In this document: positions 1,667 to 22,056 of the stretch, in pieces
How the letters are laid out: the number at the start of each line of letters is the position of its first letter
Numbering within the stretch: the first letter of the stretch is position 1
DNA from: an uncultured Muribaculaceae bacterium
GTDB lineage: Bacteria; Bacillota_I; Bacilli_A; RF39; UBA660
Length of the DNA stretch: 39,533 nucleotides
Reading direction: 5' to 3'
Assembly: GCA_964575655.1 (NCBI GenBank)
Contig: CAZNQV010000003.1
Span: forward strand, 1-39,533
Program-made: the position numbers and the translations under genes
Notes under the pieces: model-generated
What the model saw: only the letters and a program-made list of their open reading frames with translations
Database searches by the model: none
What the model was told of the DNA's origin: nothing

Positions 1667-3634
1667 ATGGCAACAAAAAAGTCGGTTAAAAAAACAATAG
1701 TAAAGAAAAACGGTAAAAAAAAGAAAATTTTAAATAAAAAAGGGAAGGCTAGTACCAAAACATTAATTATTATATTAATTATAGTAATAGTTGTTGGATT
1801 AGGAGCAATCTTTGGAATCAAAGCCTTAAGTAATAAAAAAGGGCTTAATGGTGGTGGCATGGATGCAACAATCAAAATAGCTCAATATAGATATTATAAG
1901 TATAAAAATAAATGTCAGTGTAAATTTTATACGGTGGGAACTAGTAAGGCAGTTAATAAATCTGTTTCATTAACTGCATCTACTAAATATGCTAATAAGG
2001 ATTGTACAACATATTGTACTAAAAATTTAAAAAAGATATATAGTAGTTCAAGAGAAATATATAAGGTAGAAGGTAAAATATCATCAGCTAGCAAAACTAA
2101 TTATAGTTCATGGACTACATCTACTAAGGTACCAAGTGGTTATACTAAATCAAATAAGCAAACGAGATATATTACAAAAAGCGTAAAAGAGTATTCTATT
2201 AAATATAATGGTAATGGAGCTACTAGTGGTAGTACATCTTCTCAAAAACATACTTATGGTTCATCTAAGACATTAACAGCAAATGGATTTGTTAAAACAG
2301 GTTATACTTTCTTAGGTTGGGCAACTAGTGCTGATGGGGCTGTGAAATATGCGAATAAGGCTTCTGTTAAAAATTTAACATCTAAGGATGGAGCAACAAT
2401 AACTTTATATGCAAAATGGAAAGTAAATGTGGCAACAATAAACTACCATGTTAATGGTGGTAAAATAAGTGGTGGCTTATCATCAATTAAATCCGATAGT
2501 TCATTAGTATATATAAACAATAATAAGATGGTTACCAAAGTAAATTATGATTCTAAAATTATTTCAGATGGATTAAATAATCCAAATAATCCAGCTTATC
2601 TAAATATAGTAAAATCAGGATATAAAGCACAAGATAAGAAAGAATGGTGTACTAATCCTAACGGAAGTGGTACATGCTATAATGATGCATCATCAGCATA
2701 TAAAGGTCAAGATTTCTGCAATTTAGATAAAGGAAACTGTACAGTAACATTATATGTTAATTGGCAAGCAATACCTAAAGTAAAAATCCATTTCATCAGT
2801 CAAACAACTAGTGCAGATGCTATTTTATTAGAATCTGATGGACATTTTGCAATGGTAGATACAGGAGTTGATATAACTGATCCAAAAAGTAAAGAAAATA
2901 ATCCCGAAAAAGTAATTGAGTATTTAAAAGCATTAAAAGTTAAAACATTAGATTTCATTTTGATAACTCATGCTCACGAGGATCATTTAGGTGGCGGATT
3001 GGATATACTTAATAGTGGTATTAAAGTTAAAAGAGTTTACATCAAAACTTTCTTGAGGAATGGAGAAAAATCAACAGGTTCTGCAGATAGATATATAGAT
3101 ATGTATAACAATTTTATGAAAGCTGTTAAGGCCTTGAGTATTCCAATTACCTATATTGAAACTTTAAAAGAGGGTTATACCTTTAATCTTGATGAAATGA
3201 AGATATCACTTTATAACACAGAACAGTTAATGAATAAGACAGATTATGCTGGTAAGTCGGAGAATTTTAACTCGGTGGTTCAGTATATTAAAATTGGAAA
3301 TACTAAAACATTATTAGGTGCTGATTCATATAGTAAAGAAATTTTCACAAAAATTGTTAAAAAAGTAGGCGATATTGATGTTTTAAAAGTTCCACATCAT
3401 GCTTATACAATTTGTGGAGTAACTCCAGAAAATGCAGAAATAATGAATCCAAAGTATTTAGTAGTTACTAATTCAACAGCAAAAATGCAAGAATATCGTG
3501 AAACTGGCGTTGATTCTGGTAAATGCTTAGATAACTTTAATAATGATATACCAAGATATTATGTAAATCATACATCGAAGTCTTTAATTATTGATTATAG
3601 TGATAATAAAATTAAAATAGTAGAAAACAATTAA
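1667..3634 (+). CDS. membrane-anchored exported protein: Lys-rich tail + TM, Cys-containing N-module, Listeria-Bacteroides (Flg_new-type) repeat, C-terminal metallo-beta-lactamase-fold domain
   Basis: RBS GGAGAGGAG. N-terminus is KK-rich, followed by TM LIIILIIVIVVGLGAIFGI. Repeat ...YSIKYNGNGATSG...TGYTFLGWATSADG...ITLYAKW. MBL signature ILITHAHEDHLGG (HxHxDH). Confidence 0.75.
   Translation: MATKKSVKKTIVKKNGKKKKILNKKGKASTKTLIIILIIVIVVGLGAIFGIKALSNKKGLNGGGMDATIKIAQYRYYKYKNKCQCKFYTVGTSKAVNKSVSLTASTKYANKDCTTYCTKNLKKIYSSSREIYKVEGKISSASKTNYSSWTTSTKVPSGYTKSNKQTRYITKSVKEYSIKYNGNGATSGSTSSQKHTYGSSKTLTANGFVKTGYTFLGWATSADGAVKYANKASVKNLTSKDGATITLYAKWKVNVATINYHVNGGKISGGLSSIKSDSSLVYINNNKMVTKVNYDSKIISDGLNNPNNPAYLNIVKSGYKAQDKKEWCTNPNGSGTCYNDASSAYKGQDFCNLDKGNCTVTLYVNWQAIPKVKIHFISQTTSADAILLESDGHFAMVDTGVDITDPKSKENNPEKVIEYLKALKVKTLDFILITHAHEDHLGGGLDILNSGIKVKRVYIKTFLRNGEKSTGSADRYIDMYNNFMKAVKALSIPITYIETLKEGYTFNLDEMKISLYNTEQLMNKTDYAGKSENFNSVVQYIKIGNTKTLLGADSYSKEIFTKIVKKVGDIDVLKVPHHAYTICGVTPENAEIMNPKYLVVTNSTAKMQEYRETGVDSGKCLDNFNNDIPRYYVNHTSKSLIIDYSDNKIKIVENN
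1751..1900 (+). repeat. direct repeat, copy 1 (5' coding region shared by the tandem paralogs)
   Basis: AGTACCAAAACATTAATTATTATATTA...GGAGCAATCTTTGGAATCAAAGCCTTAAGTAATAA... is near-identical to 3845-3994. The upstream terminator hairpin is also duplicated. Confidence 0.8.
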
Positions 3635-6157: not shown

Positions 6158-6168
6158 GTAGTGATTTG

Positions 6169-8310
6169 ATGAAAAACAGAAAAGCTAGAAATGATATAAA
6201 ACTAAATAAGTTTTTGATTGTTTTTGCTTTTTTTTGTTTTGCTTTAATAGTTGCTAGGACGTCTTATTTAGCAATATCTCCTAGTATTGATGGCATAGAT
6301 ATAAAACAGTTTGCTAAGAATAGAACTACTTCTAAAACCACATTATATGCAAATCGAGGTACTATTTTTGATGTTCATGGTGATATATTAGCAGAGAATA
6401 CTTCATCATATACTTTAATTGCATATCTGGATGAATCTCGTAGTGAGAATTCTAGTACATTGCAACATGTAAAGGATATTGAATCGACCGCTAAGAGTTT
6501 GGCAACGGTTTTAGATATTAAAGAAGAAAAAATTGTGGAATATTTGAGTCAAAAGAACAGGTATCAGGTTGAATTAGGTCCTAAAGCAAAAGGTTTAACT
6601 GAACTAACTAAAGAAAAAATCGAAGCTTTAAACTTACCGGGAATTGATTTTATTGAATCAATACAACGATATTATCCCAATGGTAATTTTGCATCTTATG
6701 TATTAGGATATGCTAAGAAAAATGATGCAGGTATCATAAATGGTGAGTTAGGAATAGAGCAGTTATATAATAAGGAATTAAGTGGGACTGATGGATATGT
6801 AGAATTCCAAAAAGATCGAAATGGTTATCAAATCCCTAATACAAAAGAAATTAGACAAGATGCTGTTACAGGAAATGATATATATTTAACGATTGATAGT
6901 AATATTCAATATTTTGTAGATCAAGCATTACATGCTTCATATGGAAAATATTCACCAGAATGGATGTTGATGGTTGTAGCTGATGCTAAAACAGGGAAAA
7001 TTTTAGCAGATTCTTCTAGACCTTCATTTGATCCTAATATTTTAGATATTGAAAACTATTATGATTTAAGTATTTCACTTCCATATGAACCTGGTTCTAC
7101 TGTAAAAACATATACATATATGGCAGCCTTGGAAAAAGGAACATATGATGGATCAAAAAAATTTAAATCTGGCAGTTATAAAGTAGATAAAGATACAATA
7201 ATTAGTGATTGGAATAACAAAGGTTTTGGTACAATAACTTATGATCAGGGTTATGTTGCCTCAAGTAATGTTGGTATTATTAATGTGCTAAATAATTTTA
7301 TTACGGGGAAAGACTTAAAAGATTATTTGGATAAACTAGGTTTTGGTGTAGAAACTAATGTTGGGCTTGCTAACGAAGCCAAAGGAACTGTTAGTTTTAC
7401 ATATGATTCTGAAGTTTATAGTGCTGGTTTTGGTCAAGGAATTACCACGACGCCAATGCAACATATTAAGGCTTTAACTTCTATCGCTAATGATGGGATA
7501 ATGTTGCAACCTTATATTATTGATAAAATAGTTGATAGCAACAATGAAAAGGTTATTATGCAAAATAAACGAACAGAATTAGATACGGTGGCTTCTAAAA
7601 CAACCACCGATAAGATGAAAGAATTAATGTATATGGTAGTTAATGGTGGTAGTGGAGCAGCAAATACTGGTAGTGGTTATAAAATAAATGGTTATGATAT
7701 TATTGGTAAAACAGGTACTGCCCAAATATTTAATACTAAAAAAGGGGCATATTATACTGATGATTATAATGTAATTAGATCAGTTGCCTTAATGTTTCCA
7801 AAAGATAACCCACAAATAATTATTTATGCTGCAGAACAACGAGGTTCAATTAATGCTTTAACTTCTTCAGTTAAAAAAGTTATTGAAAATACAGCGACTT
7901 ATCTTAATATATATAAAACTACAACTGAACAAGAACAAATGATTAATTATAAAGTAGATAATTATATAAATGATAAAACTAATCAAGTTACAACAGATTT
8001 AACTTCAAAGAATATTAATTTTGTAGTAATTGGTGATGGTGATAAAATAATTAATCAATATCCTAGTTATAATAATATAGTAAATAGTAATGAGAGGGTA
8101 ATTTTACTTACTTCTGGAACTAATTACTTAATGCCAAATATTAAAGGTTATTCAACTAAAGAAGTATTAGCTTTGGCAGATTTACTGGAAATTGAAGTAA
8201 TTACTGAAGGATATGGTTATGTTAAATCATCTAATATTAAGGAAGGTACTGCAATTTCCAAAGATTTAATTTTAGAAGTATCGTTAGAGCGACTGTATGA
8301 TGATATATAA
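6169..8310 (+). CDS. pbpB: class B penicillin-binding protein (division transpeptidase, Pbp2B/FtsI type) with C-terminal PASTA repeats
   Basis: SxxK = STVK, SxN = SSN, KTG = KTGTA. N-terminal TM plus dimerisation domain. Two PASTA-like units at the C-terminus. The 713-aa length and the position match Bacillus Pbp2B. Confidence 0.9.
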   Translation: MKNRKARNDIKLNKFLIVFAFFCFALIVARTSYLAISPSIDGIDIKQFAKNRTTSKTTLYANRGTIFDVHGDILAENTSSYTLIAYLDESRSENSSTLQHVKDIESTAKSLATVLDIKEEKIVEYLSQKNRYQVELGPKAKGLTELTKEKIEALNLPGIDFIESIQRYYPNGNFASYVLGYAKKNDAGIINGELGIEQLYNKELSGTDGYVEFQKDRNGYQIPNTKEIRQDAVTGNDIYLTIDSNIQYFVDQALHASYGKYSPEWMLMVVADAKTGKILADSSRPSFDPNILDIENYYDLSISLPYEPGSTVKTYTYMAALEKGTYDGSKKFKSGSYKVDKDTIISDWNNKGFGTITYDQGYVASSNVGIINVLNNFITGKDLKDYLDKLGFGVETNVGLANEAKGTVSFTYDSEVYSAGFGQGITTTPMQHIKALTSIANDGIMLQPYIIDKIVDSNNEKVIMQNKRTELDTVASKTTTDKMKELMYMVVNGGSGAANTGSGYKINGYDIIGKTGTAQIFNTKKGAYYTDDYNVIRSVALMFPKDNPQIIIYAAEQRGSINALTSSVKKVIENTATYLNIYKTTTEQEQMINYKVDNYINDKTNQVTTDLTSKNINFVVIGDGDKIINQYPSYNNIVNSNERVILLTSGTNYLMPNIKGYSTKEVLALADLLEIEVITEGYGYVKSSNIKEGTAISKDLILEVSLERLYDDI

Positions 8311-8332
8311 AGCAAGATTAACTTGCTTTTTT
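8311..8332 (+). terminator. rho-independent terminator after pbpB
   Basis: AGCAAG-ATTAA(C)-CTTGCT followed by TTTTTT. Confidence 0.55.
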
Positions 8333-8374
8333 CATGCAATAATTTTATTTTGATTGGTTAGCAATTAGTATAAT

Positions 8375-8402
8375 TTGATAGTATTTGGTTATATTACATA
8401 AT
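8375..8402 (+). promoter_or_regulatory. candidate promoter of the SipW-like cluster
   Basis: TTGATA (8375-8380), 16 nt spacer, CATAAT (8397-8402). This would place the transcript start after ATG 8401 and before ATG 8428. Confidence 0.3.
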
Positions 8403-8427
8403 GAAAATATCTAGAAAGGATGATAGT

Positions 8428-8964
8428 ATGAGAAAAGAAAAGGAATTTAAAACTTTTGCCATAATTGCTATTTTCATTGCTATAATTGGTTTATCAATTG
8501 GTTATGCTAATCTTAGTGAAACATTAAGAATTAATTCTAAAACTACTTTAGAGGGTTCTACTTGGAAAATTGAGTTTGAAAATGTTGGAACACCAACTTT
8601 AAATGGTACAGCGGCGATCGTTACTCCGGCTAGTTTAACTGCAACAATCATATCGCTTGATGTATCTTTAACTAAGCCTGGAGATAGTATAATTTATACT
8701 TTTGATGTAACTAACAAAGGGGATATTGATGCTAAATTAAGTGCTATACCGACAATAACTGGATTAGATGAAGCTACAGCAAATAATATCAATTATACAT
8801 TAACTTATGCCAATGGAGGTGCTTTAACAGCTAATGATGAGTTAAATGCTGGTGATACCAAAAATTTAAAACTAACAATAGTTTTTAATAGTACTGCTAC
8901 AACAGTGGTGGCAACTGATACCATATTAAATATTAATGCTTCACTGGTATATGTACAAAAATAA
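8428..8964 (+). CDS. small exported beta-rich protein, TasA/camelysin-like (or CARDB-like) candidate fibre subunit
   Basis: MRKEKEFKTFAIIAIFIAIIGLSIGYA/NLSETLRINS...: a signal anchor with small residues at -3/-1 (G-Y-A). ...SLTKPGDSIIYTFDVTNKGDIDAKL... resembles the TasA segment NLKPGDKLTKDFQFENNGSLAIK (recalled from memory). About 150 aa mature. RBS GAAAGGA precedes 8428. Confidence 0.45.
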   Translation: MRKEKEFKTFAIIAIFIAIIGLSIGYANLSETLRINSKTTLEGSTWKIEFENVGTPTLNGTAAIVTPASLTATIISLDVSLTKPGDSIIYTFDVTNKGDIDAKLSAIPTITGLDEATANNINYTLTYANGGALTANDELNAGDTKNLKLTIVFNSTATTVVATDTILNINASLVYVQK

Positions 8965-8972
8965 TATGTGCA

Positions 8973-10100
8973 ATGTTAACAAATAAAAATAAAACAATTA
9001 TTTTACTGATAGTTATGCTAGGGTTCATACTTTTTCTTAATTTTTATTATGATTTATTTAGTTTATATAAAAGTGTAAGTAGTCTTTTTTGGATAATATC
9101 TTTTTTTATAATTATAATACTGATTGGTTTCAATAAGGATAAATATATATATAAAATTGATATAATACAATTAGTATTTATTTATACTTTTTGTTATTTG
9201 ATTTTTATTTATATTTTAGGAATTATCTTGGGTTTTTCAACTAGTCCTTATACTCATAGTATCAGTAATATTATTAAAAATAGTTTTTTTGCGGTATTAT
9301 TGATTATCTTTCAAGAATTATTTAGATATACTGTAATAGCGAAAGAAAACAAAAGGTTGAATCTTTTGGTTACAGTTTTGATTATTATATTTGATATAGT
9401 TTTAGGATTAAATTTATACGATGTAATGCTCGTTACTGATGTTTTTAAACTATTTGCATTAATTATTATTCCTAGTATATGTCGTAATACTCTGCTAACT
9501 TTTTTAACAATTAAAGCTGGATATTTACCAAGTATTTTATATCGAATAATTCTAACTATGTATATTTATATATTACCGATTTTTCCAGATTTAGGTATTT
9601 ATTTGGAATCAATATTTTATATTGTATTACCAATGATAATCTACTTAAGAATTAATAAATTATTAGATAAACAAGTTAGAAAAAATAATTATCAAAAAAG
9701 AACTTTGAAAGCTGTTTTAACTATGCCATTATTTGCAATTAGTATATTAATAATATGTTTAGTGTCTGGTTTATTTAAATATACTATCTTAGCGATTGGA
9801 TCTAATTCAATGTACCCTTATATAAAAAAAGGTGATGTAATTATTTTTGAAAAAACTTCTAATTATCAAAGTTTTAAGGAAAAAGATATTTTATTATACA
9901 ATTACAATAATAAAATAATTGTTCATCGGATTGTAGACATTAAGCAAAGTACTGGTAAATATGTTTTTTTTACTAAGGGAGATAATAATAAAACAATTGA
10001 TAATTATCCCATATATGAAAATATGATAGTTGGAAAAGGGATCACGAAAATACCTTTTGTGGGTTTTCCATCAGTATGGTTTAGTGAAGTTATTGACTAG
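8973..10100 (+). CDS. ER/archaeal-type (S26B, SipW-like) signal peptidase I fused to an N-terminal polytopic (~7-8 TM) membrane domain
   Basis: The C-terminal ~110 aa carry ...LAIGSNSMYPYIKKGDVIIF... (Ser box), ...VHRIVDI... (His box) and ...FFTKGDNNKTIDN... (GDNN box), which is the SipW/Sec11 pattern rather than the Lys-type LepB pattern. The preceding ~260 aa are almost entirely hydrophobic helices. Confidence 0.75.
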   Translation: MLTNKNKTIILLIVMLGFILFLNFYYDLFSLYKSVSSLFWIISFFIIIILIGFNKDKYIYKIDIIQLVFIYTFCYLIFIYILGIILGFSTSPYTHSISNIIKNSFFAVLLIIFQELFRYTVIAKENKRLNLLVTVLIIIFDIVLGLNLYDVMLVTDVFKLFALIIIPSICRNTLLTFLTIKAGYLPSILYRIILTMYIYILPIFPDLGIYLESIFYIVLPMIIYLRINKLLDKQVRKNNYQKRTLKAVLTMPLFAISILIICLVSGLFKYTILAIGSNSMYPYIKKGDVIIFEKTSNYQSFKEKDILLYNYNNKIIVHRIVDIKQSTGKYVFFTKGDNNKTIDNYPIYENMIVGKGITKIPFVGFPSVWFSEVID

Positions 10101-10113
10101 GAGGTAAAAGTTT

Positions 10114-11136
10114 ATGAATAAGAATAATACCAGAACAAATATTAAACTATTGATAGTATTGATATTATTAGTTGCAATGATTGTTTTTTGGGTGCGTTAT
10201 TTTCAAACTGCTCGTGATTCTTTTGTACAAAATGCCATTAGTTATAATGAAAAAGGTGAATTAAATTATAGTGTTTGCTTAGTCAAGAATGATTATATTG
10301 AAGAAAGTTGTTTTACTGAAAAAAGAAGTTTTATTACCAGTTTAATTGATTATATTGTTATAAAATTTAACTATAATTTTAGTGCTTCTGATGTTGTTAA
10401 TAATGATTATAATTATGTAATAAAAGCCTCAGTTGTAGCAAATGAAAGAGGGGAACAATCAAAAGTAGTTTATACTAAAGAAGAAATCCTAGTAAATGAG
10501 CAATCAAATAAAAATAGTACTGCTAATATCAATATTTTTGAAAGCATTAAGATAGATTATCAGAAATATAATAGTTTAATTACTGAATTTAAGAAAACAT
10601 ATTTTTTGTCATTAGATAGTAAATTAAACATTGTAGCAGAAGTAAATATAAATAATAAAGAGGTTAAAACTATTATATTAACTATTCCTTTATCAGAACA
10701 AACAACTAATATTATTGATAACGACGCTAAACTAGAAAATAATGGGATATTAACACAAAACAACATGCAGAAATTTTCTTTTTTAGAAGATATTGTTTTA
10801 GTAGTTAGTAGTATTGTTATAATTGTTTTATTATTTCTAATTATTAAATATATTAAACAAATAAAAGCCAATAATAAGAGATATTATGGCAGAATAAGAT
10901 ATATTTTAAAACATTATGATGAAATAGTTGGCAAAACGAAAATAATGCCCAATTTAGTGGATTATAGAGTTATTGAAATGAGTAGTTTTGAAGAACTATT
11001 GGATATTCGAAACAATTTAGGTAAACCTATATTATTTCATGAGAATAATAATAAAACAGAGGCTAATTTTATGATTTTGAACAATAATGAAATATATCTA
11101 TATAAAATACATAGAGATGACGAAAATGAGAAATAA
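10114..11136 (+). CDS. bitopic/two-TM membrane protein of unknown function (extracytoplasmic ~200-aa domain, cytoplasmic ~95-aa tail)
   Basis: Strong RBS AGGAGG. TM1 is IKLLIVLILLVAMIVFWV and TM2 is IVLVVSSIVIIVLLFLII. No catalytic motif recognised. Confidence 0.55.
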   Translation: MNKNNTRTNIKLLIVLILLVAMIVFWVRYFQTARDSFVQNAISYNEKGELNYSVCLVKNDYIEESCFTEKRSFITSLIDYIVIKFNYNFSASDVVNNDYNYVIKASVVANERGEQSKVVYTKEEILVNEQSNKNSTANINIFESIKIDYQKYNSLITEFKKTYFLSLDSKLNIVAEVNINNKEVKTIILTIPLSEQTTNIIDNDAKLENNGILTQNNMQKFSFLEDIVLVVSSIVIIVLLFLIIKYIKQIKANNKRYYGRIRYILKHYDEIVGKTKIMPNLVDYRVIEMSSFEELLDIRNNLGKPILFHENNNKTEANFMILNNNEIYLYKIHRDDENEK

Positions 11137-13183
11137 AAACATAATAATTATATGTATTTGTTTTATTTTTATATTTAGTATAACTATTGGTTATGCTGTT
11201 TTAAGTGAACAATTAAATATTAATAGTATGGTAACAGTGAGAAGTCAGAAGGATATTAGAATAACTAGTTTAAATGGATTTGTATCGACTAATGAAGGTT
11301 ATGAAATATATGTTGCTAGGTATAATGAAAATCAAATGGTGTTTAATATTGCTTTACCTAATATAGAATCTAATATTAGTTATAATGCTTCCATAACTAA
11401 TTATGGAAATACTAATATGAAAGTTAAAACAATTACAAATGAATCGTATAACAACAATGCTATTACCTACTATTTAAATGGCGTTAGAGAAGGTGATGTT
11501 ATTACTAATGGTGAAACAATTAATTTTAATATTGTATTTGAATATGATGATAATTTAACAACTATTCCTTCAAATAACGAATTAGGTGCAGTTATAAGTT
11601 TTGAATTTGAGGATTATGTATTAAATGATTATGTTTATGAAGAAAATGGTCTAATTTTAAATTTAATGGGACTTGATCAACCAGTAAATAATATTTGGTA
11701 TGATCGAGTGGATAATAAACCAATGTATTTAACTAATGCACTATATAATTCTGAAAGAAAAAGTTATTCCTTTAATAGTAATAGTTTTGGAACAATGAAT
11801 ATACCCATAATTCCTGAAACTGGTGATTTTACTCTAGAAACATATATTAAAACTCCAAATATATTTTTGAATAATGCTGATGAAGCGATTATTGCTCAAG
11901 TTAGTGATAGTGAAAATGATACAGGTCGATTTAAATTAAATATAAAATATAATTCAGAGTTAACTTCTAAATATCAAATATTAGCATTTATTAATTCATC
12001 AGTTTTAAGTAGTAATGTAACATTTAATTATACTATTTTACCAGTAATAGATACTGATTATTTACTACAATTAGTTAGAATTAATGATGAATTCAAACTA
12101 TATTTAAATGGAATAGAGATATTTAATAACACAGTTTTTTCTTCTAATAATACAGTTTCACAAGGACCTTTTAAAATAGGCAAATGGAATACTAAATCTA
12201 ATCAACCATTTACTGGGCAGATTTTTTCAATTAGAGTTTATAATCGAGCATTGACTGATCAAGAATTAAATAAAAACAAGAATACTGATTATCATTATTA
12301 TCAACAAGCTAATGTTACTGATACTATTAAAACTTATGCTGTTAATTATCATTTAGTTGATAGTGGTAGTGGGTTATATCATATAGATAATGAACACTAT
12401 ATTTATAAGGGTAATAGTAGTGTTAATAATTATGTAAAATTCGCTGAAAGTGATGATTTATATAGAATTATTGCTTTTGAAAATAATGATGTTATGAAAC
12501 TAATTAATGTTTCTAAAATTATTAATCGAGCTTTTGATGAAAGTGGTAATCGTACTACTGATAGTTCGTCATATTGTACATATGCTTCGACTTTAATTGA
12601 AAATTCGACTACTGAATTTCATGGTTGTAATGCTTGGAACTCAAATTCTGAATTAGTTACACCAGCATCATCAGGGAATGTTGTTAATGATTCATCTATT
12701 TTAACTTATTTGAATAATGATTTTTATAATTCTCTGCCTATTAGTATTAAAAATAAAATTATTGCTCATAATTTTTATTCTGGTCTAGTGGAGGCTGGTG
12801 TATCATCTGCTACAGCATTACAACAAATTAGATCGGTTACTTGGAATGGTAAGATTGGGTTAGTATCGTTAGGTGATGTATTAAATGCTTCACTTACTAA
12901 TTTTGAAATTGGTATAAATAATACAAATATTAGTAATTATTTTACATTTTATACTGGATCTAATAAATTTATTTGGACAATGACTGGAGCTAGTAATAAC
13001 ACTTGGGATGTGTGGACTTTAATTAACGGAGCAATTGGTAAGAGAAGAGCGAGTAGAACTGAACAAGAAATAACTTCGAATTTAACCGCTAAATACTATG
13101 TTTTTCCAGTTTTTTATACTAATAGTGATGTTGTAGCTGCAGGAAATGGTTCACTTTCACTACCTTTTATTATTCCAAATTAG
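11126..13183 (+). CDS. large exported protein: SipW-type leader + TasA-like N-domain + LamG/concanavalin-like domain + uncharacterised C-terminal domain
   Basis: MRNKNIIIICICFIFIFSITIGYA/VLSEQLNINS... carries the same leader motif as 8428-8964. LamG_3-like hallmarks: ...GDFTLETYIKTP... and ...FTGQIFSIRVYNRALTDQELNKN.... The start could also be 11117 or 11087. Confidence 0.65.
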   Translation: MRNKNIIIICICFIFIFSITIGYAVLSEQLNINSMVTVRSQKDIRITSLNGFVSTNEGYEIYVARYNENQMVFNIALPNIESNISYNASITNYGNTNMKVKTITNESYNNNAITYYLNGVREGDVITNGETINFNIVFEYDDNLTTIPSNNELGAVISFEFEDYVLNDYVYEENGLILNLMGLDQPVNNIWYDRVDNKPMYLTNALYNSERKSYSFNSNSFGTMNIPIIPETGDFTLETYIKTPNIFLNNADEAIIAQVSDSENDTGRFKLNIKYNSELTSKYQILAFINSSVLSSNVTFNYTILPVIDTDYLLQLVRINDEFKLYLNGIEIFNNTVFSSNNTVSQGPFKIGKWNTKSNQPFTGQIFSIRVYNRALTDQELNKNKNTDYHYYQQANVTDTIKTYAVNYHLVDSGSGLYHIDNEHYIYKGNSSVNNYVKFAESDDLYRIIAFENNDVMKLINVSKIINRAFDESGNRTTDSSSYCTYASTLIENSTTEFHGCNAWNSNSELVTPASSGNVVNDSSILTYLNNDFYNSLPISIKNKIIAHNFYSGLVEAGVSSATALQQIRSVTWNGKIGLVSLGDVLNASLTNFEIGINNTNISNYFTFYTGSNKFIWTMTGASNNTWDVWTLINGAIGKRRASRTEQEITSNLTAKYYVFPVFYTNSDVVAAGNGSLSLPFIIPN

Positions 13184-13212
13184 AATATGTTAATTAGGCA
13201 TGTTCTTTTTTT
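13182..13212 (+). terminator. rho-independent terminator closing the SipW-like cluster
   Basis: AGAATATG-(9 nt)-CATGTTCT (one G-T pair) followed by TTTTTT. Confidence 0.55.
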
Positions 13213-13246
13213 ATGATAATAAAAATAATCTATATTAGGTGATAAT

Positions 13247-14332
13247 ATGTTTCATAAGAGAATAGATCAAAGAATGAAAGTTGTTTTAATATTTATTTTA
13301 GTTTTTTTATTGTTTATTATACTGAGAATTGTTTTTATTGAAACAATATCTAATAAAAAACTAAAACTATTAGCAGATGATCTATGGAGTAGAGAATTAC
13401 CTATAACGGCAGAACGAGGTAATATTTATGACCGTAATGGTAAGGTTTTAGCAACTAATATTACAACAACGAGTTTAATCATTGTTCCTAATCAAGTGAA
13501 AAACAAGCAAGAAACAGCGCAAATAATTGCCGATATTTTAAATGTTGATTTTGAAGAGATATATGAACATACAACCGCTATTTCATCACTAGAAAGAGTT
13601 CATCCAGAAGGAAGAGGACTAAGCTATGAAATAGCCGATGAGATTAATAGTCATCAACTTGATGGTGTTTATTTAGTAAAGGAAGCTAAAAGATCTTATC
13701 CTAATGGAACAACTCTATCGCATGTTTTAGGATTTGTTGGAATTGATAATCAAGGACTAAGTGGTTTGGAACTACAATATGATTCTTATTTAAAGGGTGA
13801 TAGTGGGGCAATTAAATATTATGCGGATGCCAAAGGAAATAAGTTAAAGATGAGTGAAATGTATGTTCAACCGACTAGTGGCAATAATATATATTTGACA
13901 ATTGATTATGATATTCAAATGTCTTTAGAAAGAGAATTAGATAACGTTGTATCAATGTTTACACCAGATAATGCTTTAGCAATTGTAATGAATCCTAATA
14001 CAGGTGAGATTTATGGTATGAGTTCAAGACCGGCATTTGATCCTAATGATTATCAAAAGTATACAGTTGAGACGTTAAATCGTAATTTACCTGTTTGGTA
14101 TGCTTATGAACCGGGGTCAACCTTTAAAATCGTAACAACAGCTGCAACAGTAGAAGAAGGACTAATTAATTTAGAAAAGGATACTTTTCATGATTCTGGA
14201 TCGGTTGTAATTGAAGGAGCTAGATTAAAGTGCTGGAAAACTAAAGGTCATGGGCATCAAACTTTTTTACAAGTATTTGAAAATTCATGTAATCAAGGGT
14301 TTTATATAGAGATACCTTTGAGTATAATGTAA
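13247..14332 (+). CDS. spoVD: 5' segment of a split SpoVD-type class B PBP gene (authentic coding through 14293, then 13 element-derived codons and a stop)
   Basis: TM plus PBP dimerisation domain. SxxK = STFK (EPGSTFKIVT) and SxN = SCN (ENSCN) lie right at the junction. After N(14291-14293) the sequence reads QGFYIEIPLSIM*, unrelated to PBPs. No KTG box in this segment. Confidence 0.85.
   Translation: MFHKRIDQRMKVVLIFILVFLLFIILRIVFIETISNKKLKLLADDLWSRELPITAERGNIYDRNGKVLATNITTTSLIIVPNQVKNKQETAQIIADILNVDFEEIYEHTTAISSLERVHPEGRGLSYEIADEINSHQLDGVYLVKEAKRSYPNGTTLSHVLGFVGIDNQGLSGLELQYDSYLKGDSGAIKYYADAKGNKLKMSEMYVQPTSGNNIYLTIDYDIQMSLERELDNVVSMFTPDNALAIVMNPNTGEIYGMSSRPAFDPNDYQKYTVETLNRNLPVWYAYEPGSTFKIVTTAATVEEGLINLEKDTFHDSGSVVIEGARLKCWKTKGHGHQTFLQVFENSCNQGFYIEIPLSIM
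14291..14294. repeat. attL core (AATC shared with attR)
   Basis: tcatgtAATCaagggtttt compared with aagcAATCcaggatttg at 18049-18052. Flanking similarity follows the pattern AATCnAGGnTTT. Confidence 0.6.
14308..14315. repeat. element-internal inverted-repeat arm (left), putative recombinase half-site
   Basis: AGAGATAC is the reverse complement of GTATCTCT at 18026-18033. On the excised circle the arms would be 32 nt apart, with the midpoint on AA of the AATC core. Confidence 0.5.
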
Positions 14333-14642: not shown

Positions 14643-15503
14643 ATGAATCATATATATATAAAAGCAAGAGCAAAAATAAACTTAACTCTAAATGTATTAG
14701 ATAAAAGAGATGATGGATATCATAATATAGAATCAATATTTCAAAGAATTTGTTTATATGATAAAATACATATCTATAAAATAAAAAATGATGAATTTAT
14801 ATTAGAAACAAATATATCAGAAATAAACAACAAAGAAAATATAATATATAAAGCATACATTGAACTTAAAAATAGATATAATCAAATTTCGGGAATAAAA
14901 GTAAAACTGAATAAAAGAATACCAATGCAAGCTGGCTTAGGTGGAGGAAGTGCAGATTGTGCTAGTTTTATATTAGCAATGAATAAACTCTTTAAATTAA
15001 ATCTCTCTGAAGTAGAAATGATCGAAATAGGTGAAAAGTTAGGTTCCGATGTAGTTCCATGCTTTTATAATCAAGTTGTTAAAGCTGAAGGTAAGGGAAA
15101 TATAATTAGTAAAATAAATTCGAAATGTCAGTTTCATGTCTTAATTATAAAACCTGATTTTACATGTAGTACTGTAAAAATGTATCAAAAATTTGATGAT
15201 AGGTATATAGAGCAAAATTATAATTCACACAAAATGATAGATGCGTTAAGAACAGGTGATATATTTGAAATTTCACAAAACTTATACAATGTATTTGAAC
15301 AAGTGATAGAAAAAAAAGAATTGATTAATAAAATAAAAATTGAGTTAGAGAAAAATGGAGCTATAGGTAGTTTGATGTGTGGCTCAGGCTCGTGTGTATT
15401 TGGTATATTTTGCAATAAAAAACAAATAAAAAAAGCTTATAAAAAGTTGAAAAAAACATATGATTTATATATGTGTCTTTCTTATAATAATAGAAATAGA
15501 TGA
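14643..15503 (+). CDS. ispE: 4-diphosphocytidyl-2-C-methyl-D-erythritol kinase-like GHMP kinase
   Basis: AKINLTLNVLDKRDDGYHNIESIFQ... is the IspE N-terminal signature. GHMP motif PMQAGLGGGSADCA. C-terminal GSGSCVFG. RBS AGGAG. Confidence 0.8.
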   Translation: MNHIYIKARAKINLTLNVLDKRDDGYHNIESIFQRICLYDKIHIYKIKNDEFILETNISEINNKENIIYKAYIELKNRYNQISGIKVKLNKRIPMQAGLGGGSADCASFILAMNKLFKLNLSEVEMIEIGEKLGSDVVPCFYNQVVKAEGKGNIISKINSKCQFHVLIIKPDFTCSTVKMYQKFDDRYIEQNYNSHKMIDALRTGDIFEISQNLYNVFEQVIEKKELINKIKIELEKNGAIGSLMCGSGSCVFGIFCNKKQIKKAYKKLKKTYDLYMCLSYNNRNR

Positions 15504-16089: not shown

Positions 16090-16296
16090 TTGAATGAAAA
16101 AAGGGGCAGTTGTGAGGAATTATTATTACATACCGAAAAGAACATATTACCAAAAGAATACATTATGCTTAATCATAGATTAATTTTAAATAAAGAATTA
16201 TATGAATCAAAACTAGTAAGTACTCAAGTATTTCAAAAAATGGAGAAAATACTAATAACAAAAATGAATGATTTAATTGCAAAAACTCTGGAATGA
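16090..16296 (+). CDS. small hypothetical protein (68 aa) immediately upstream of the recombinase; candidate accessory or directionality factor
   Basis: TTG start 7 nt after AAGGGAGG. The stop overlaps the recombinase reading frame (ATGA). No recognisable motif. Confidence 0.4.
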   Translation: MNEKRGSCEELLLHTEKNILPKEYIMLNHRLILNKELYESKLVSTQVFQKMEKILITKMNDLIAKTLE

Positions 16297-16313
16297 TAAG
16301 AAAGGGGTATCTA

Positions 16314-18065
16314 ATGGACATTATAAAGGCAAGGGAAGATTTGATAAAAGGTAAAACAATTTATGATATGAAGTTAAGGGTAGCAGATTTATGTCGTGTA
16401 TCAACCGATAAAGATGAGCAATTAAATTCTTTAGATAACCAAGTAAATTATTTTAGTGAAATGATAAATAATTGTCCTAATTGGACACATATAGGATCGT
16501 ATGTTGATGAAGGAATTAGTGGAACTAGTGTAGATAAAAGAAAAGGTTTTTTAAAAATGATCGAAGATGCAAAACTTGGAAAAATAGATTTAATTTTAAC
16601 AAAAGAAATATCAAGATTTTCAAGAAATACAGTTGATAGCATAAAATATACTCAATTATTATTGTCCTGTGGAGTTATAGTGTATTTTCTTTCGGACAAT
16701 ATAAATACTATATATCCTGATAGTGAATTTAGACTTACTCTTATGGCAAGTATGGCACAGGATGAAGTTAGAAAATTATCAGAAAGAGTTAAGTTTGGAA
16801 TGAAAAGAATGATAAAAGATGGAAAACTAATAGGTGGAGGTAATATAACAGGTTATAATAAAAGTAAGGGTAAATTAGTTATTAATGAAGAAGAAAGACC
16901 AATAATAGAAACATTATTTAATTTATATGTAACTGGAGAATATGGCTTTGCAAAAATAGGTGAAAAACTTGCAGAAATGGGATATTTTACTACTAAAGGT
17001 AGGATATTTAGTGATACTACATTAAAAAAGATTTTGCAAAATCCAAGATACAAAGGATTTTACACAGCAAATAAGTCTTACATTGAGGATTATAAAACTC
17101 ATAAAAAAATTATGAATCCAAAAGAACAATGGATTTGTTATAAAGATGAAAATATACCACCAATAATAAGTGAAGAACTTTGGGATGAAGCAAATAGATT
17201 ATATGAAAAAAGAAAAAAGCATTGGAACAAATATGTAGTTAATAAAACTTTCTATTTAGAAAAAAGAAATTATACTTCAAAATTATTTTGTAAAGATCAC
17301 GATACAACTTTTATAAGATATGCCTCTGGTAAAAGAAAAGAAAATCCAACTTGGCAATGTAATGAATATTTAAGACACGGTTTAAAAGGTTGCAAGACTC
17401 CAATTATTTATGAAAAACATCTTGATAATATATTTGAAAAAGTATTAAATAAATTTATTACTAATAAAGAAGAATACTTGGAAGAAATTTTATTAGACTA
17501 TAAAAGATTAATAAAAGAAAATAACGGGGAATTTAATGTAGATGAATTACGAGAAAAAATAAAAGAGCAAGAAACTATAAAAGAAAGACTATTTGATATG
17601 TCCCTTAGAAAATTAATAACTGATGATGAGTTTGTGATAAAGAAAGAAAAAATAAATAAAGATATTAATGAATTAAAAATAGAAATTAATAAATATGAAA
17701 CAGAAAAAGAAGATATTAGTTTATATGAAAATATATGTAAAAAAATAAGAGAGTTTATTGAGCCAAAATTAGATATAAAAAACAATATAGAAAGATATGT
17801 TAATCTATTTATAGATAAAGTATTTGTTTCAAAAATAAATAATGATAGAAAGCATTTAAAATTAGAAATTGTATTCAATTTTAATAGAGATGATGAAGAA
17901 GTAGAAGTAGATTTCAATGAGTCAAATAATGGTAATAATACTAAAAAAACAAATAAAACAAATAAAACAAATAATAGGAAAGAAAAAACTAGGGTGTCAT
18001 TTGACAACAATTTTTTTCTAGAGAAGTATCTCTTACTAGACCACAAGCAATCCAGGATTTGTTAA
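16314..18065 (+). CDS. large serine recombinase (SpoIVCA/SprA/phiC31-type)
   Basis: ...LRVADLCRVSTDKDEQLNSLDNQ... holds the catalytic Ser in RVST. The resolvase core ...ILTKEISRFSRN...SE..R.LSERVK... is followed by a recombinase domain and a Cys-containing zinc-ribbon region (CKDH...WQCNEYLRHGLKGC) and a coiled-coil. RBS AAAGGGG precedes ATG 16314. The stop at 18063-18065 lies 13 nt beyond the attR core. Confidence 0.9.
   Translation: MDIIKAREDLIKGKTIYDMKLRVADLCRVSTDKDEQLNSLDNQVNYFSEMINNCPNWTHIGSYVDEGISGTSVDKRKGFLKMIEDAKLGKIDLILTKEISRFSRNTVDSIKYTQLLLSCGVIVYFLSDNINTIYPDSEFRLTLMASMAQDEVRKLSERVKFGMKRMIKDGKLIGGGNITGYNKSKGKLVINEEERPIIETLFNLYVTGEYGFAKIGEKLAEMGYFTTKGRIFSDTTLKKILQNPRYKGFYTANKSYIEDYKTHKKIMNPKEQWICYKDENIPPIISEELWDEANRLYEKRKKHWNKYVVNKTFYLEKRNYTSKLFCKDHDTTFIRYASGKRKENPTWQCNEYLRHGLKGCKTPIIYEKHLDNIFEKVLNKFITNKEEYLEEILLDYKRLIKENNGEFNVDELREKIKEQETIKERLFDMSLRKLITDDEFVIKKEKINKDINELKIEINKYETEKEDISLYENICKKIREFIEPKLDIKNNIERYVNLFIDKVFVSKINNDRKHLKLEIVFNFNRDDEEVEVDFNESNNGNNTKKTNKTNKTNNRKEKTRVSFDNNFFLEKYLLLDHKQSRIC
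18026..18033. repeat. element-internal inverted-repeat arm (right)
   Basis: GTATCTCT; see 14308-14315. Confidence 0.5.
18049..18052. repeat. attR core (AATC)
   Basis: See 14291-14294. AAT here is in frame with the downstream PBP codons (aat cca gga ttt gtt aaa atg). Confidence 0.6.
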
Positions 18066-18906
18066 AATGGGAATGCTACTAGGTAAAGATAAATTATTTG
18101 AATATATAGATTTATTTGGTTTTGGTGAAAAAACGGGAATAGATTTATCAGGAGAAGCTACGGGTATAATCTTTGATACAAATAATATTGGTTTAGTTGA
18201 AACGGCAACGACGGCATTTGGTCAAGGAGTGAGTGTTACCCCAATTCAACAGGTAAGAGCTGTATCGGCTATTGTTAATGGGGGATATTTATATCAACCT
18301 TATATTGTAAAAAGTATAAAAAAAGATAATCAAATTATCTTGGAAAATGATAAAAACTTAATTCGGAAAACAATCAGTGAGAATACTAGTGAAATTATGA
18401 AAATGGCATTGGAAAGTGTTGTTACTAATGGTGGTGGTCGAGCAACTTATATTGAAGGATATCGGGTTGGTGGTAAAACCGGTACTGCCCAAAAAGCGAA
18501 GGATGGAAGATATTTGGTAGGTAATTATATAATGAGTTTTATGGCGGTAGTACCAGCTAATGATCCAGAAGCTGTATTATATGTAGCAATTGACAATCCT
18601 CATAATACGGCTATGTTATCTAGTTATACAACTACCCCTGTTGCGAGACGAGTTTTATTGGATATTATTGATAGCTTAGATATTGAAAAACAAAGTGGTG
18701 CAACCGAAAAAAAATATGAATGGACAGATAAACGATATTATGATGTTCCTAATGTTATTGGGATGAGTGTAAAAGAAGCCAAGAAACATTTATATAATTT
18801 TGAAATTGAATATTCTGGTAATGGTGATAAAGTTTTAGAACAATCACCTAGTGGAGGAACAAGACATTACACAACCGGAAAAATCAGATTATTATTAGGC
18901 AATTAA
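18052..18906 (+). CDS. spoVD: 3' segment of the split SpoVD-type PBP gene (no independent start expected)
   Basis: In-frame PGFVKMGMLLGKDKLFEYIDLFGFGEKTGIDL..., GFGQG, KTG = GGKTGTAQ, and one C-terminal PASTA domain (VPNVIGMSVKEAKKHL...). The track ORF begins at internal Met 18067. Confidence 0.85.
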   Translation, partial: PGFVKMGMLLGKDKLFEYIDLFGFGEKTGIDLSGEATGIIFDTNNIGLVETATTAFGQGVSVTPIQQVRAVSAIVNGGYLYQPYIVKSIKKDNQIILENDKNLIRKTISENTSEIMKMALESVVTNGGGRATYIEGYRVGGKTGTAQKAKDGRYLVGNYIMSFMAVVPANDPEAVLYVAIDNPHNTAMLSSYTTTPVARRVLLDIIDSLDIEKQSGATEKKYEWTDKRYYDVPNVIGMSVKEAKKHLYNFEIEYSGNGDKVLEQSPSGGTRHYTTGKIRLLLGN

Positions 18907-21155: not shown

Positions 21156-21953
21156 ATGAAAAAAGTAAGTGAAGGTTATAGGAGTATTTCATATTTAGAT
21201 GGAAATGATAAAATAGTTTTAAAAGGTAAAAACTATTATGCTAATAAATCTTATATCAAAGATTATAAAACGCTTAAAACCATTGGCAAGTATATTAAAA
21301 GTGTAGATATACCAAATAATGTAGAATTAATTGGTATTAATGATGAGTTTTTATATGGTGGCTTAAGATATTCATTCATAGGTGGCTTAGTATTTGATTA
21401 TAATTTAAAAGACAAATATAATTTAGAGGGTATTGCAAATGGATTATCAGCGTTTTTAAATGAATTACATTCAATAAAAACAAAGTATAATCGAAATAAA
21501 ATAATAAACGATGAGATATTAACTGTAAATCAAAATATCGATGTATTAAAAAAGTATTTAGATTTAAATTATATGGATAAAATAACTAAAATATGGTTAA
21601 GTAAATATAATAGGAAATTAGATGATTATGAGGATTTTTCAATTGTTCATGGAGATTTGTGGTATGAGAATTATATAATATCATATGATCATCAAAAACT
21701 AATAGGGATTATTGATTTTGAAAATTCAATGGTTTTTATGAGAGAATATGATTTCGTTCCATTATTATATATTAGTAATGATTTTATAAGTAATGTAATA
21801 AAAAAATATACTTATAATTTAGATAAAGAGTTAATAAATTTATTGTTTATTAGAAGAGAAATATGTAGTTTTAAATATATTTTAGAGAATGAACCTGATG
21901 ATGTGGATGAACAATTAGAAAAAATAAGAAATTCTATTGATAAATATCTATAA
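21156..21953 (+). CDS. aminoglycoside/choline-kinase-like phosphotransferase (APH family)
   Basis: Brenner-type catalytic loop VHGDLWYENYI and the downstream IGIIDFENS (DFE/DxD) motif. Confidence 0.7.
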   Translation: MKKVSEGYRSISYLDGNDKIVLKGKNYYANKSYIKDYKTLKTIGKYIKSVDIPNNVELIGINDEFLYGGLRYSFIGGLVFDYNLKDKYNLEGIANGLSAFLNELHSIKTKYNRNKIINDEILTVNQNIDVLKKYLDLNYMDKITKIWLSKYNRKLDDYEDFSIVHGDLWYENYIISYDHQKLIGIIDFENSMVFMREYDFVPLLYISNDFISNVIKKYTYNLDKELINLLFIRREICSFKYILENEPDDVDEQLEKIRNSIDKYL

Positions 21954-22056
21954 TTGATTTCTTAATTATCTTTGACATACATAGTAATTTTGATATATTT
22001 CTAGTAAAAAAATGGTGACTATGTTATAATGTATATGACAAAAAGGTGGGATTGTT

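Follow-up and report, generated by a model that had tools for sequence, protein, structure and literature searches.

What are four tightly packed genes doing between two penicillin-binding protein (PBP) genes of a division and cell wall (dcw) cluster? The question is raised by positions 1 to 39,533 of contig CAZNQV010000003.1 (GenBank assembly GCA_964575655.1; this whole stretch of 39,533 nucleotides is referred to as the window), from an uncultured bacterium. The four genes, designated g1 to g4, probably encode a self-contained system for making an extracellular protein fibre of the TasA superfamily; their nearest known counterparts are the AbpX-type loci of archaea and Clostridia. In Bacillus biofilms and archaeal bundling pili, fibres of this superfamily make up the protein scaffold, and SipW, TasA and TapA of Bacillus subtilis (fibre, PDB 8AUR) provide the paradigm. 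A sequence-only reading of the window had proposed a donor-strand fibre system with an adhesin-like large subunit, together with checks that included profile searches with the four proteins, an AlphaFold model of g1 alone and a survey of the neighbourhoods of peptidase homologues. Its proposal is supported by homology, fold, motif conservation and co-occurrence, as described below. The genes in the open reading frame (ORF) listing, with product lengths in amino acids (aa), are as follows.

8428-8964, plus strand: g1, 178 aa
8973-10100, plus strand: g2, 375 aa
10114-11136, plus strand: g3, 340 aa
11126-13183, plus strand: g4, 685 aa

The co-orientation and tight packing described in the sequence-only reading were confirmed: g1 and g2 are separated by 8 nucleotides (nt) and g2 and g3 by 13 nt, g3 and g4 overlap by 11 nt, and the outer neighbours are 117 nt (5' side) and 63 nt (3' side) away. 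The cluster is real and not a product of chance, because each ORF has homologues (E 1e-26 to 1e-157) in conserved order elsewhere. Translation of g1 probably starts at 8428, as homologues align from that Met and an AAAGGA motif is located 9 nt 5' of it; the ATG at 8401 is a less probable start. The ribosome-binding site of g3 is a strong GGAGG.

The case for a fibre begins with g1, which by its sequence is best regarded as an AbpX-like fibre subunit of the TasA superfamily, an exported beta-sandwich protein with the following parts.

residues 1-27 (8428-8508, plus strand): signal peptide, predicted to be cleaved after G-Y-A27
residues 28-41 (8509-8550, plus strand): amphipathic putative donor strand, NLSETLRINSKTTL
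residues ~46-178: beta-sandwich core

AbpX is a protein of Pyrodictium abyssi whose donor-strand fibre has a solved structure (PDB 9SJ2, 9RHP; bioRxiv 10.64898/2026.01.04.697558), and its precursor sequence was taken from the supplement of that paper. Profile-profile comparison by hhalign between the g1 family and AbpX (cryoEM fibre 9SJ2) yielded probabilities of 94.5% and 95.3% (E 7e-8 and 2e-8) over ~138 columns. Probabilities of 85-89% (E 2-6e-6) were obtained when the leader, or the leader and the strand, were omitted, and reversed or shuffled AbpX controls gave 2% or less. AbpX (9sj2) was also the best PDB sequence match of a 17-sequence g1 profile (E 0.04, from mature residue 3). Placement of g1 in the TasA superfamily is through AbpX, whose link to TasA comes from the same paper (bioRxiv 10.64898/2026.01.04.697558).

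A word-indexed search for relatives of g1 found only 17, and exhaustive profile search returned 8,522 clusters (50% identity) at E<=1e-3 and 5,319 at E<=1e-10. The best 150 relatives are mostly full-length proteins of ~180-230 aa. No Pfam or NCBIfam model scored above threshold for the family, g1 itself generated only sub-threshold Ig-like hits in Pfam, and none of ten members looked up by cluster has an assigned name. The AlphaFold2 (AF2) model of the g1 monomer (mean predicted local distance difference test score, pLDDT, 82.9) contains a signal-peptide helix at residues 2-28, an unstructured segment at 29-47, and then a beta-sandwich. When the model was compared with the PDB using Foldseek, nearly all top matches were donor-strand pilins (CfaB, TasA 8aur, AbpA 7ueg, Fim, Saci_0406 7pnb), with probabilities near 1. 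The g1 core domain was also observed as 37 repeats in one 4825-aa protein (P0018).

The junction between leader and mature protein is the second line of evidence. The AbpX leader end ...AIGLTYA, followed after the cut by QWSETLSLSATIS, aligns residue for residue with g1 ...IIGLSIGYA followed by NLSETLRINSKTT, so that the g1 strand corresponds to AbpX W2-I12; g4 reads ...SITIGYA followed by VLSEQLNINSMVT. Among 132 family members, the leader ends with G (-6), L/I (-5), S/T (-4), V/I (-3), A/G (-2), F/Y (-1, 100% aromatic) and A (0, 95%), and the predicted cut conforms to the -3/-1 rule of signal peptidase I. The positions after the cut are A/S, L/M/F, S/T, T/Q, T, L (+6, 95%), x, I (+8, 92%), x, G (+10, 84%), T/S, A, x and V; Trp at +19 is 98% conserved. 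Sites around the predicted cut rank among the most conserved of the whole protein. Hydrophobic residues of the strand alternate (+2, +6, +8, +12, +14), and the conserved strand is the same stretch that is left unstructured in the AF2 monomer of g1, as is the N-terminal strand in the monomer model of AbpX (bioRxiv 10.64898/2026.01.04.697558). Pattern and model together suggest that this stretch has the alternation of a donor strand and would behave like one.

The cluster also encodes a candidate enzyme for the cut. On sequence grounds, g2 is assigned as a polytopic signal peptidase I of the S26B type (endoplasmic reticulum (ER)/archaeal/SipW-type, SEC11-like), composed of three parts, the second being the ninth transmembrane (TM) helix.

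residues 1-236 (8973-9680, plus strand): eight-helix membrane domain
residues 244-265: TM anchor (ninth TM helix)
residues 266-375: extracytoplasmic catalytic domain of the SEC11/SipW type

The assignment to S26B made by the sequence-only reading held (TIGR02228, 87.5 bits vs a cutoff of 51.85), but its comparison with SipW did not extend to orthology: the SipW equivalog NF046067 scored 70.9 bits against a cutoff of 190, and the model has nine TM helices vs the two TM segments of SipW. Profile search matched SEC11C (7e-21), and Foldseek matched SEC11A/C and then Streptococcus pyogenes SipA. Ser279 (9807-9809), His318 (9924-9926) and Asp337/Asn339/Asp343 are invariant in 77 homologues. The AF2 model (pLDDT 91.7) shows eight N-terminal helices, the ninth TM helix and a short C-terminal helix.

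The membrane domain of g2 carries an invariant Glu115-x-x-Arg118 and an LPIxP motif, and generated no Pfam match and no PDB sequence match. With Foldseek, Rce1, a CAAX protease, was matched weakly (4cad_C, rank 40, template modelling (TM) score 0.50 to the target, E 0.6). Identity with CPBP/Rce1 was rejected, given only this rank-40 match, no sequence match and no conserved His, and is kept as a lead. An unlikely extension of the fibre proposal is that the eight-helix domain, rather than being a passive anchor, is a second functional unit, either an assembly platform or a second active site, and that the peptidase g2 and g3 together make a processive, chaperone/usher-like polymerisation machine for which the N-terminal tag is a general sorting or attachment signal. 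The membrane domain would then hold the growing fibre and pass each cut strand into the previous subunit, and the tag, (G/A)(F/Y)A followed after the cut by xΦSxTLxIxG, would also load giant adhesins onto fibres.

The remaining two proteins are consistent with an accessory factor and a second substrate. Sequence comparison and hydropathy give the following parts.

g3, residues ~5-33: TM1
g3, residues ~34-218: extracytoplasmic region
g3, residues ~219-253: TM2
g3, residues 254-340: cytoplasmic tail
g4, residues 1-24 (11126-11197, plus strand): leader, ending TIGYA
g4, 11198-11239, plus strand: putative donor strand, the sequence given above
g4, to residue ~175: g1-like domain
g4, residues 242-394 (11849-12307, plus strand): Laminin_G_3 (Pfam, 1.3e-12)
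g4, C-terminal ~290 aa: uncharacterised, weak DUF6273

Hydropathy agrees with the two-TM topology that the sequence-only reading had given for g3, and the protein can now be assigned by profile to the DUF5305 (TafG-type) family (PF17231, 3.3e-14, 53.3 bits vs a cutoff of 29, profile positions 1-217 of 217). The same reading had suggested that g3 could be a membrane platform; a membrane protein it is, but by analogy it is proposed here as an accessory subunit of the g2 peptidase rather than as a demonstrated platform. DUF5305 is TafG in haloarchaeal Tat-fimbriae (Tafi), where a role in assisting the peptidase TafD has been proposed for it, and fusions of DUF5305 with signal peptidases occur in some cases (PMC11821415, PMC12337348); in AbpX loci it is the 'SPase I accessory' (SPase, signal peptidase) (bioRxiv 10.64898/2026.01.04.697558).

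In g4, the LamG domain and the g1-type leader reported from the sequence were both recovered, and the likeness to g1 extends beyond the leader to the whole N-terminal subunit domain: the first ~150 mature residues of g4 are homologous to g1 (BLASTP 4e-5; g1 profile 2.3e-14). The protein would be a large terminal or adhesin subunit. PDB sequence searches with g3 and g4 gave no informative match. Orthologues of g4 are present at three loci in other genomes (L001, L007 and L013; E 1e-87 to 1e-157).

If the leaders were uncleaved signal anchors, g1 and g4 would stay tethered to the membrane, and g2 could serve assembly without catalysis, as S. pyogenes SipA does for sortase pili. The hydrophobic segment of the leader is fairly long (17 residues), and the Foldseek matches of g2 include SipA, a peptidase homologue that is inactive yet required for pili to polymerise. 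Against this, the Ser, His and Asp residues of g2 are invariant in its 77 homologues, the (G/A)-(F/Y)-A motif that obeys the -3/-1 rule is 95-100% conserved, and the cluster contains neither a sortase nor an LPXTG signal, so that we regard tethering as very improbable. A sortase-assembled Gram-positive pilus was likewise rejected: a motif scan of g1 to g4 found no C-terminal LPXTG sorting signal, and a domain scan that covered the cluster and the window ORFs as far as 29245, but not those from 29295 on, detected no sortase.

The module was traced in other genomes from two directions. Homologues of g2 led to six loci (L001, L003, L005, L016, L017 and GCA_016648615.1). DUF5305 adjoins the peptidase in 6/6, and small g1-family ORFs together with a larger protein having a g1-like N-terminus were found in 5/5 of those with DNA, which bears out the co-occurrence expected by the sequence-only reading. 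A tight g1 alignment led to nine species-representative genomes, seven of which have g2 and g3 immediately 3' of g1 in the order g1(n)-g2-g3(-g4); the remaining two (L009 and L015) carry orphan g1 paralogues. Two to five tandem g1 paralogues are present in L008, L010 and L014. The large subunit varies: it carries LamG_3 in the window, L001 and L007, and DUF285/BspA-type leucine-rich repeats (LRR) in L003 and L014; in L013 it is an orthologue of window g4 (1.7e-87; domains not scanned), in L016 a 911-aa protein, and in L017 a 7215-aa Flg_new adhesin with the same tag. Genes next to the module differ by locus and include recO, ffh, rplS (beside a signal peptidase of the housekeeping kind), rpsB-tsf, prs and smpB, which marks the module as portable.

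Carriers of the module are labelled uncultured Erysipelotrichaceae, 'Tenericutes' or Bacilli metagenome-assembled genomes (MAGs) from animal guts. The MAGs of L007, L009 and L013 are labelled uncultured Muribaculaceae, unlike the other named g1-seeded loci, and these labels may be misassigned. Directly 3' of the orthologous four-gene module in L001, positions 12356-13849 encode a 497-aa protein with an above-threshold Peptidase_M73 N-terminus, which links bona fide TasA-family proteins to the same type of peptidase. The g1-type leader and strand also head giant adhesin-like proteins (L017 10103-15122; L016 10180-12915), and the 7215-aa Flg_new protein of L017 starts ...AFSAFSTSLTITSE.

From these observations, a pathway can be proposed. 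The major subunit g1 and the large subunit g4 would be exported by Sec, their leaders ending G-L-S-(I/V)-(G/A)-(Y/F)-A. The peptidase g2, probably with g3, would cut after the final alanine of the leader and free the amphipathic strand (x-L-S-x-T-L-x-I-x-G-T-A-x-V in the family). The freed strand would enter the open beta-sandwich of the next subunit by donor-strand complementation, giving a non-covalent fibre. Through its g1-like N-terminal domain, g4 would be built into the fibre, where it would expose a lectin-like LamG domain and one more domain; it could be an adhesin at the tip or base, or a nucleator, with a function resembling that of TapA or of the 'tip proteins' in AbpX loci. The gene set and its order, the homologies, the catalytic residues, the conserved tag and the co-occurrence are direct observations; cleavage by g2, what g3 does, polymerisation and where g4 sits are inferred from the cryoEM structure of AbpX (bioRxiv 10.64898/2026.01.04.697558), the genetics of TafD, which was shown to process pilin (PMC11821415), and the B. 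subtilis paradigm.

Several observations weigh against this pathway. The similarity of g1 to TasA/camelysin claimed by the sequence-only reading stands at the level of the superfamily, through AbpX, but not for TasA/camelysin proper, in which membership was rejected: g1 scored 18.5 bits with Peptidase_M73 (PF12389; TasA/camelysin), below the cutoff of 22.5, and hhalign with TasA (sequence verified against 8aur_A) aligned only 23-30 residues around the KPGD...NxG motif, at 20-48%. Homology of g1 to a neighbouring Peptidase_M73 protein was rejected for the same reason, only the KPGD..NxG motif being aligned. The Foldseek matches of g1 are weak in E value and template modelling score (~1e-3, and 0.33-0.42 over the full precursor). 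A plain hidden Markov model (HMM) search of the PDB with the broad 132-sequence g1 profile did not recover AbpX, and for this reason the homology to AbpX rests on the profile-profile comparison with its controls. The hallmarks of the AbpX calcium clamp are rare in the family (aromatic residue at +2 in 28/132, acidic residue at +4 in 8/132). Window g1 and g4 have Leu2 and Glu4; of the combination of aromatic residue 2, acidic residue 4 and acidic content, the window protein shows part and the family does not. No cell-wall anchor (LPXTG, SLH) and no regulator was found in the cluster. Lastly, the fold alone does not imply a fibre, because the core beta-sandwich also repeats in giant proteins.

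Some of these points would suit a private export and processing module for surface proteins or adhesins that do not polymerise, in which the shared N-terminus is a cognate signal peptide, the strand is the protein's own edge strand and no fibre is made. The same leader heads very different large adhesin-like proteins (the 7215-aa Flg_new, LRR and LamG proteins), and the repeated core domain and the poorly conserved clamp residues point the same way. However, homology to AbpX spans the whole subunit, the strand included; the small subunits of ~180-200 aa consist of a leader, a strand and one beta-sandwich only; the tandem paralogues of L008, L010 and L014 follow the pattern of major and minor pilins; and in the AF2 model the strand is not packed against the domain that follows it. 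Export without polymerisation is accordingly held to be unlikely, and assembly of g1 and g4 into a fibre is preferred.

Among known systems, the nearest is the AbpX-type locus, not tapA-sipW-tasA. AbpX-type loci, described in January 2026, combine a multi-TM SPase I, a DUF5305 protein and minor or tip subunits; AbpX-like clusters occur in Thermoproteota, Clostridia and Chloroflexota, and the bacterial AbpX-type examples so far are Clostridia, e.g. Clostridium amylolyticum, Natronincola and Heliobacterium (bioRxiv 10.64898/2026.01.04.697558). The window cluster shares with them subunit homology (85-95% hhalign probability), the signal-peptide end ..G-L-T/S-..-Y-A before the cut and the amphipathic strand xΦSETLxΦ after it, an acidic subunit (isoelectric point of g1, 4.41, where about 4 is typical of the AbpX-like clade), a multi-TM SPase I together with a DUF5305 accessory, and a large 'tip' subunit whose N-terminus is of the pilin type; there is no chaperone or usher in either. 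The sequence-only reading had listed the fused peptidase, the two-TM protein and the LamG subunit as departures; all are in fact standard parts of an AbpX-type locus, the LamG type of large subunit being specific to the group studied here. Besides the clamp residues, the differences are a lower content of D+E in g1 (9.9% vs ~15% in AbpX), nine TM helices and a short C-terminal helix in the peptidase vs ten (bioRxiv 10.64898/2026.01.04.697558), no adjoining SLH/LPXTG anchor, histidine kinase or cyclic di-GMP genes, and a host from an uncultured low-GC gut Bacilli lineage, neither Clostridium nor archaeon.

The parallel with the Bacillus operon drawn by the sequence-only reading remains valid in part. 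Common to both are a dedicated S26B (ER-type) signal peptidase encoded beside its substrates, exported TasA-like beta-sandwich subunits with N-terminal donor-strand polymerisation (presumed for g1), another substrate that is larger and related at its N-terminus (TapA there, g4 here) and the KPGD...NxG motif. Apart from the peptidase and the sub-threshold, motif-only match of g1 described above, the cluster differs in having no TapA homologue and in having DUF5305, which is no part of the Bacillus operon; the closest relative is an AbpX/Tafi-type locus. Haloarchaeal Tafi (TafA/E, TafD, TafG; PMC11821415, PMC12337348) likewise encodes signal peptidase I and DUF5305 next to donor-strand pilins, and its locus also holds large proteins of variable type, either accessory factors or adhesins. 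Tafi pilins are, however, Tat substrates, whereas the leaders here are of the Sec type with no twin arginine; TafD has four TM helices with the peptidase domain N-terminal, whereas here the domain is C-terminal behind eight helices; and no TafB-type regulator is found here. Chaperone-usher pili (Fim, Pap, CFA/I), which are top Foldseek matches of g1, share the principle, presumed for g1, of an incomplete Ig-like subunit to which a neighbour contributes its N-terminal strand. Identity with them was rejected, as there is no periplasmic chaperone, usher or outer membrane here, and the adhesin domain follows the pilin domain, whereas in FimH and PapG it precedes it.

The cluster thus extends the AbpX-type system, with its subunits, multi-TM signal peptidase and DUF5305 protein, to uncultured low-GC gut Bacilli. 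The family, without the AbpX calcium-clamp residues, may use another assembly trigger. With a profile of the tag plus the domain, thousands of surface proteins now listed as 'hypothetical' could be annotated, and adhesins carried on fibres could be predicted. Current ideas are not overturned by these results; rather, a picture recently described in papers of 2025-26 is filled in.

Why the module lies in the dcw cluster is a separate matter. Gene order in the window is mraZ-rsmH-ftsL-pbp-[four genes]-spoVD-mraY-ftsW/spoVE-...-murG-murB-divIB, with gpr ~2 kb past the divIB end. The features around the four genes are as follows.

6166-8310: PBP2B/FtsI-like class B PBP gene with PASTA domains, 5' neighbour
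8309-8335, plus strand: hairpin (8309-8329) and U-tract (to 8335), folding -7.8 kcal/mol, z -2.3
8375-8402, plus strand: sigma-70-like promoter match TTGATA-16-CATAAT, 5' of g1, consensus match only
13182-13213, plus strand: hairpin (13182-13206) and U-tract (to 13213), folding -8.8 kcal/mol, z -3.2
13247-14332: N-terminal half of spoVD, 3' neighbour

Bracketing terminators had been noted from the sequence, and both hairpins do fold with U-tracts, though weakly. The first is likely to be a weak intrinsic terminator of the 5' PBP gene and the second to be the intrinsic terminator of the four-gene unit. A consensus terminator scan, which requires 3 G-C pairs, reported neither; both stems are AT-rich and weak, and such hairpins are plausible terminators in a sequence of 26.8% GC. 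The promoter match carries little weight, as promoter-like matches in the region numbered 44 vs 57.9 expected from shuffles. The GC content of the cluster (24.6% vs 26.8% in the window) is unremarkable, and an Rfam scan of the window found no RNA family. An origin of the cluster from a mobile element was rejected: there was no phage match, and plasmid matches were to generic signal peptidases only.

The odd location in the dcw cluster is real in the window, and adjacency to spoVD recurs in L010 (rpsB-tsf-g1x3-g2-g3-spoVD-mraY). A PASTA-type class B PBP is encoded ~5 kb from the module in GCA_016648615.1, and the orphan g1 paralogue of L015 is 5 kb from spoVD-mraY-ftsW. Together with the fact that TasA was first found as a spore-associated protein (PDB 5of1 is named 'Spore coat-associated protein N'), this could suggest an appendage coupled to sporulation or division, such as a spore-surface fibre, with expression or function tied to spoVD and the dcw genes. 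But position in the dcw cluster is not general to such modules: the closest orthologous ones (L001 and L007; LamG subunits 1e-145 to 1e-157) are located at unrelated loci, and others lie after ffh, rplS, prs or smpB. The unit is also flanked by hairpin terminators of its own and preceded by a sigma-70-like promoter match, and no sporulation-sigma promoter was identified. The spore or septal appendage advanced by the sequence-only reading thus has little support and stays speculative; coupling of this kind is judged improbable.

The dcw cluster of the window has another break: an APH-family kinase-like gene and cysS (21156-23499) separate ftsW/spoVE from murG. Upstream of the cluster, a 655-aa protein encoded at 1667-3634 contains a Listeria-Bacteroides repeat (Flg_new) and a metallo-beta-lactamase domain, and is preceded by three small ORFs (133-1575) with no family match.

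The 3' neighbour of the module, spoVD, is itself interrupted: ~3.75 kb separate its N-half (13247-14332) from its C-half (18043-18906). Residues 1-356 are encoded by 13247-14302 and residues 351-639 (numbering of the intact L010 protein) by 18043-18906. The intervening element carries ispE (14643-15503; TIGR00154 above cutoff) and small ORFs, and its large serine recombinase (16293-18065) runs up to the junction, abutting the spoVD C-half. The junctions of the element are near 14291-14302 and 18049-18060 and have a common 12-bp core, AATC(A/C)AGG(G/A)TTT; joining the two halves at the core yields an uninterrupted 633-aa ORF across the SxN motif. The element looks like a member of a skin-like family of intervening elements that target spoVD and are excised in the mother cell, and a literature search found no paper on such a spoVD-targeting family. 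Orthologous recombinases (60-65% identity) precede a spoVD C-terminal fragment in two metagenomic contigs, L018 (6001-8590) and L019 (6001-8602), where other genes are carried: one contig has an SNF2-type helicase, the other bAvd with a reverse transcriptase.

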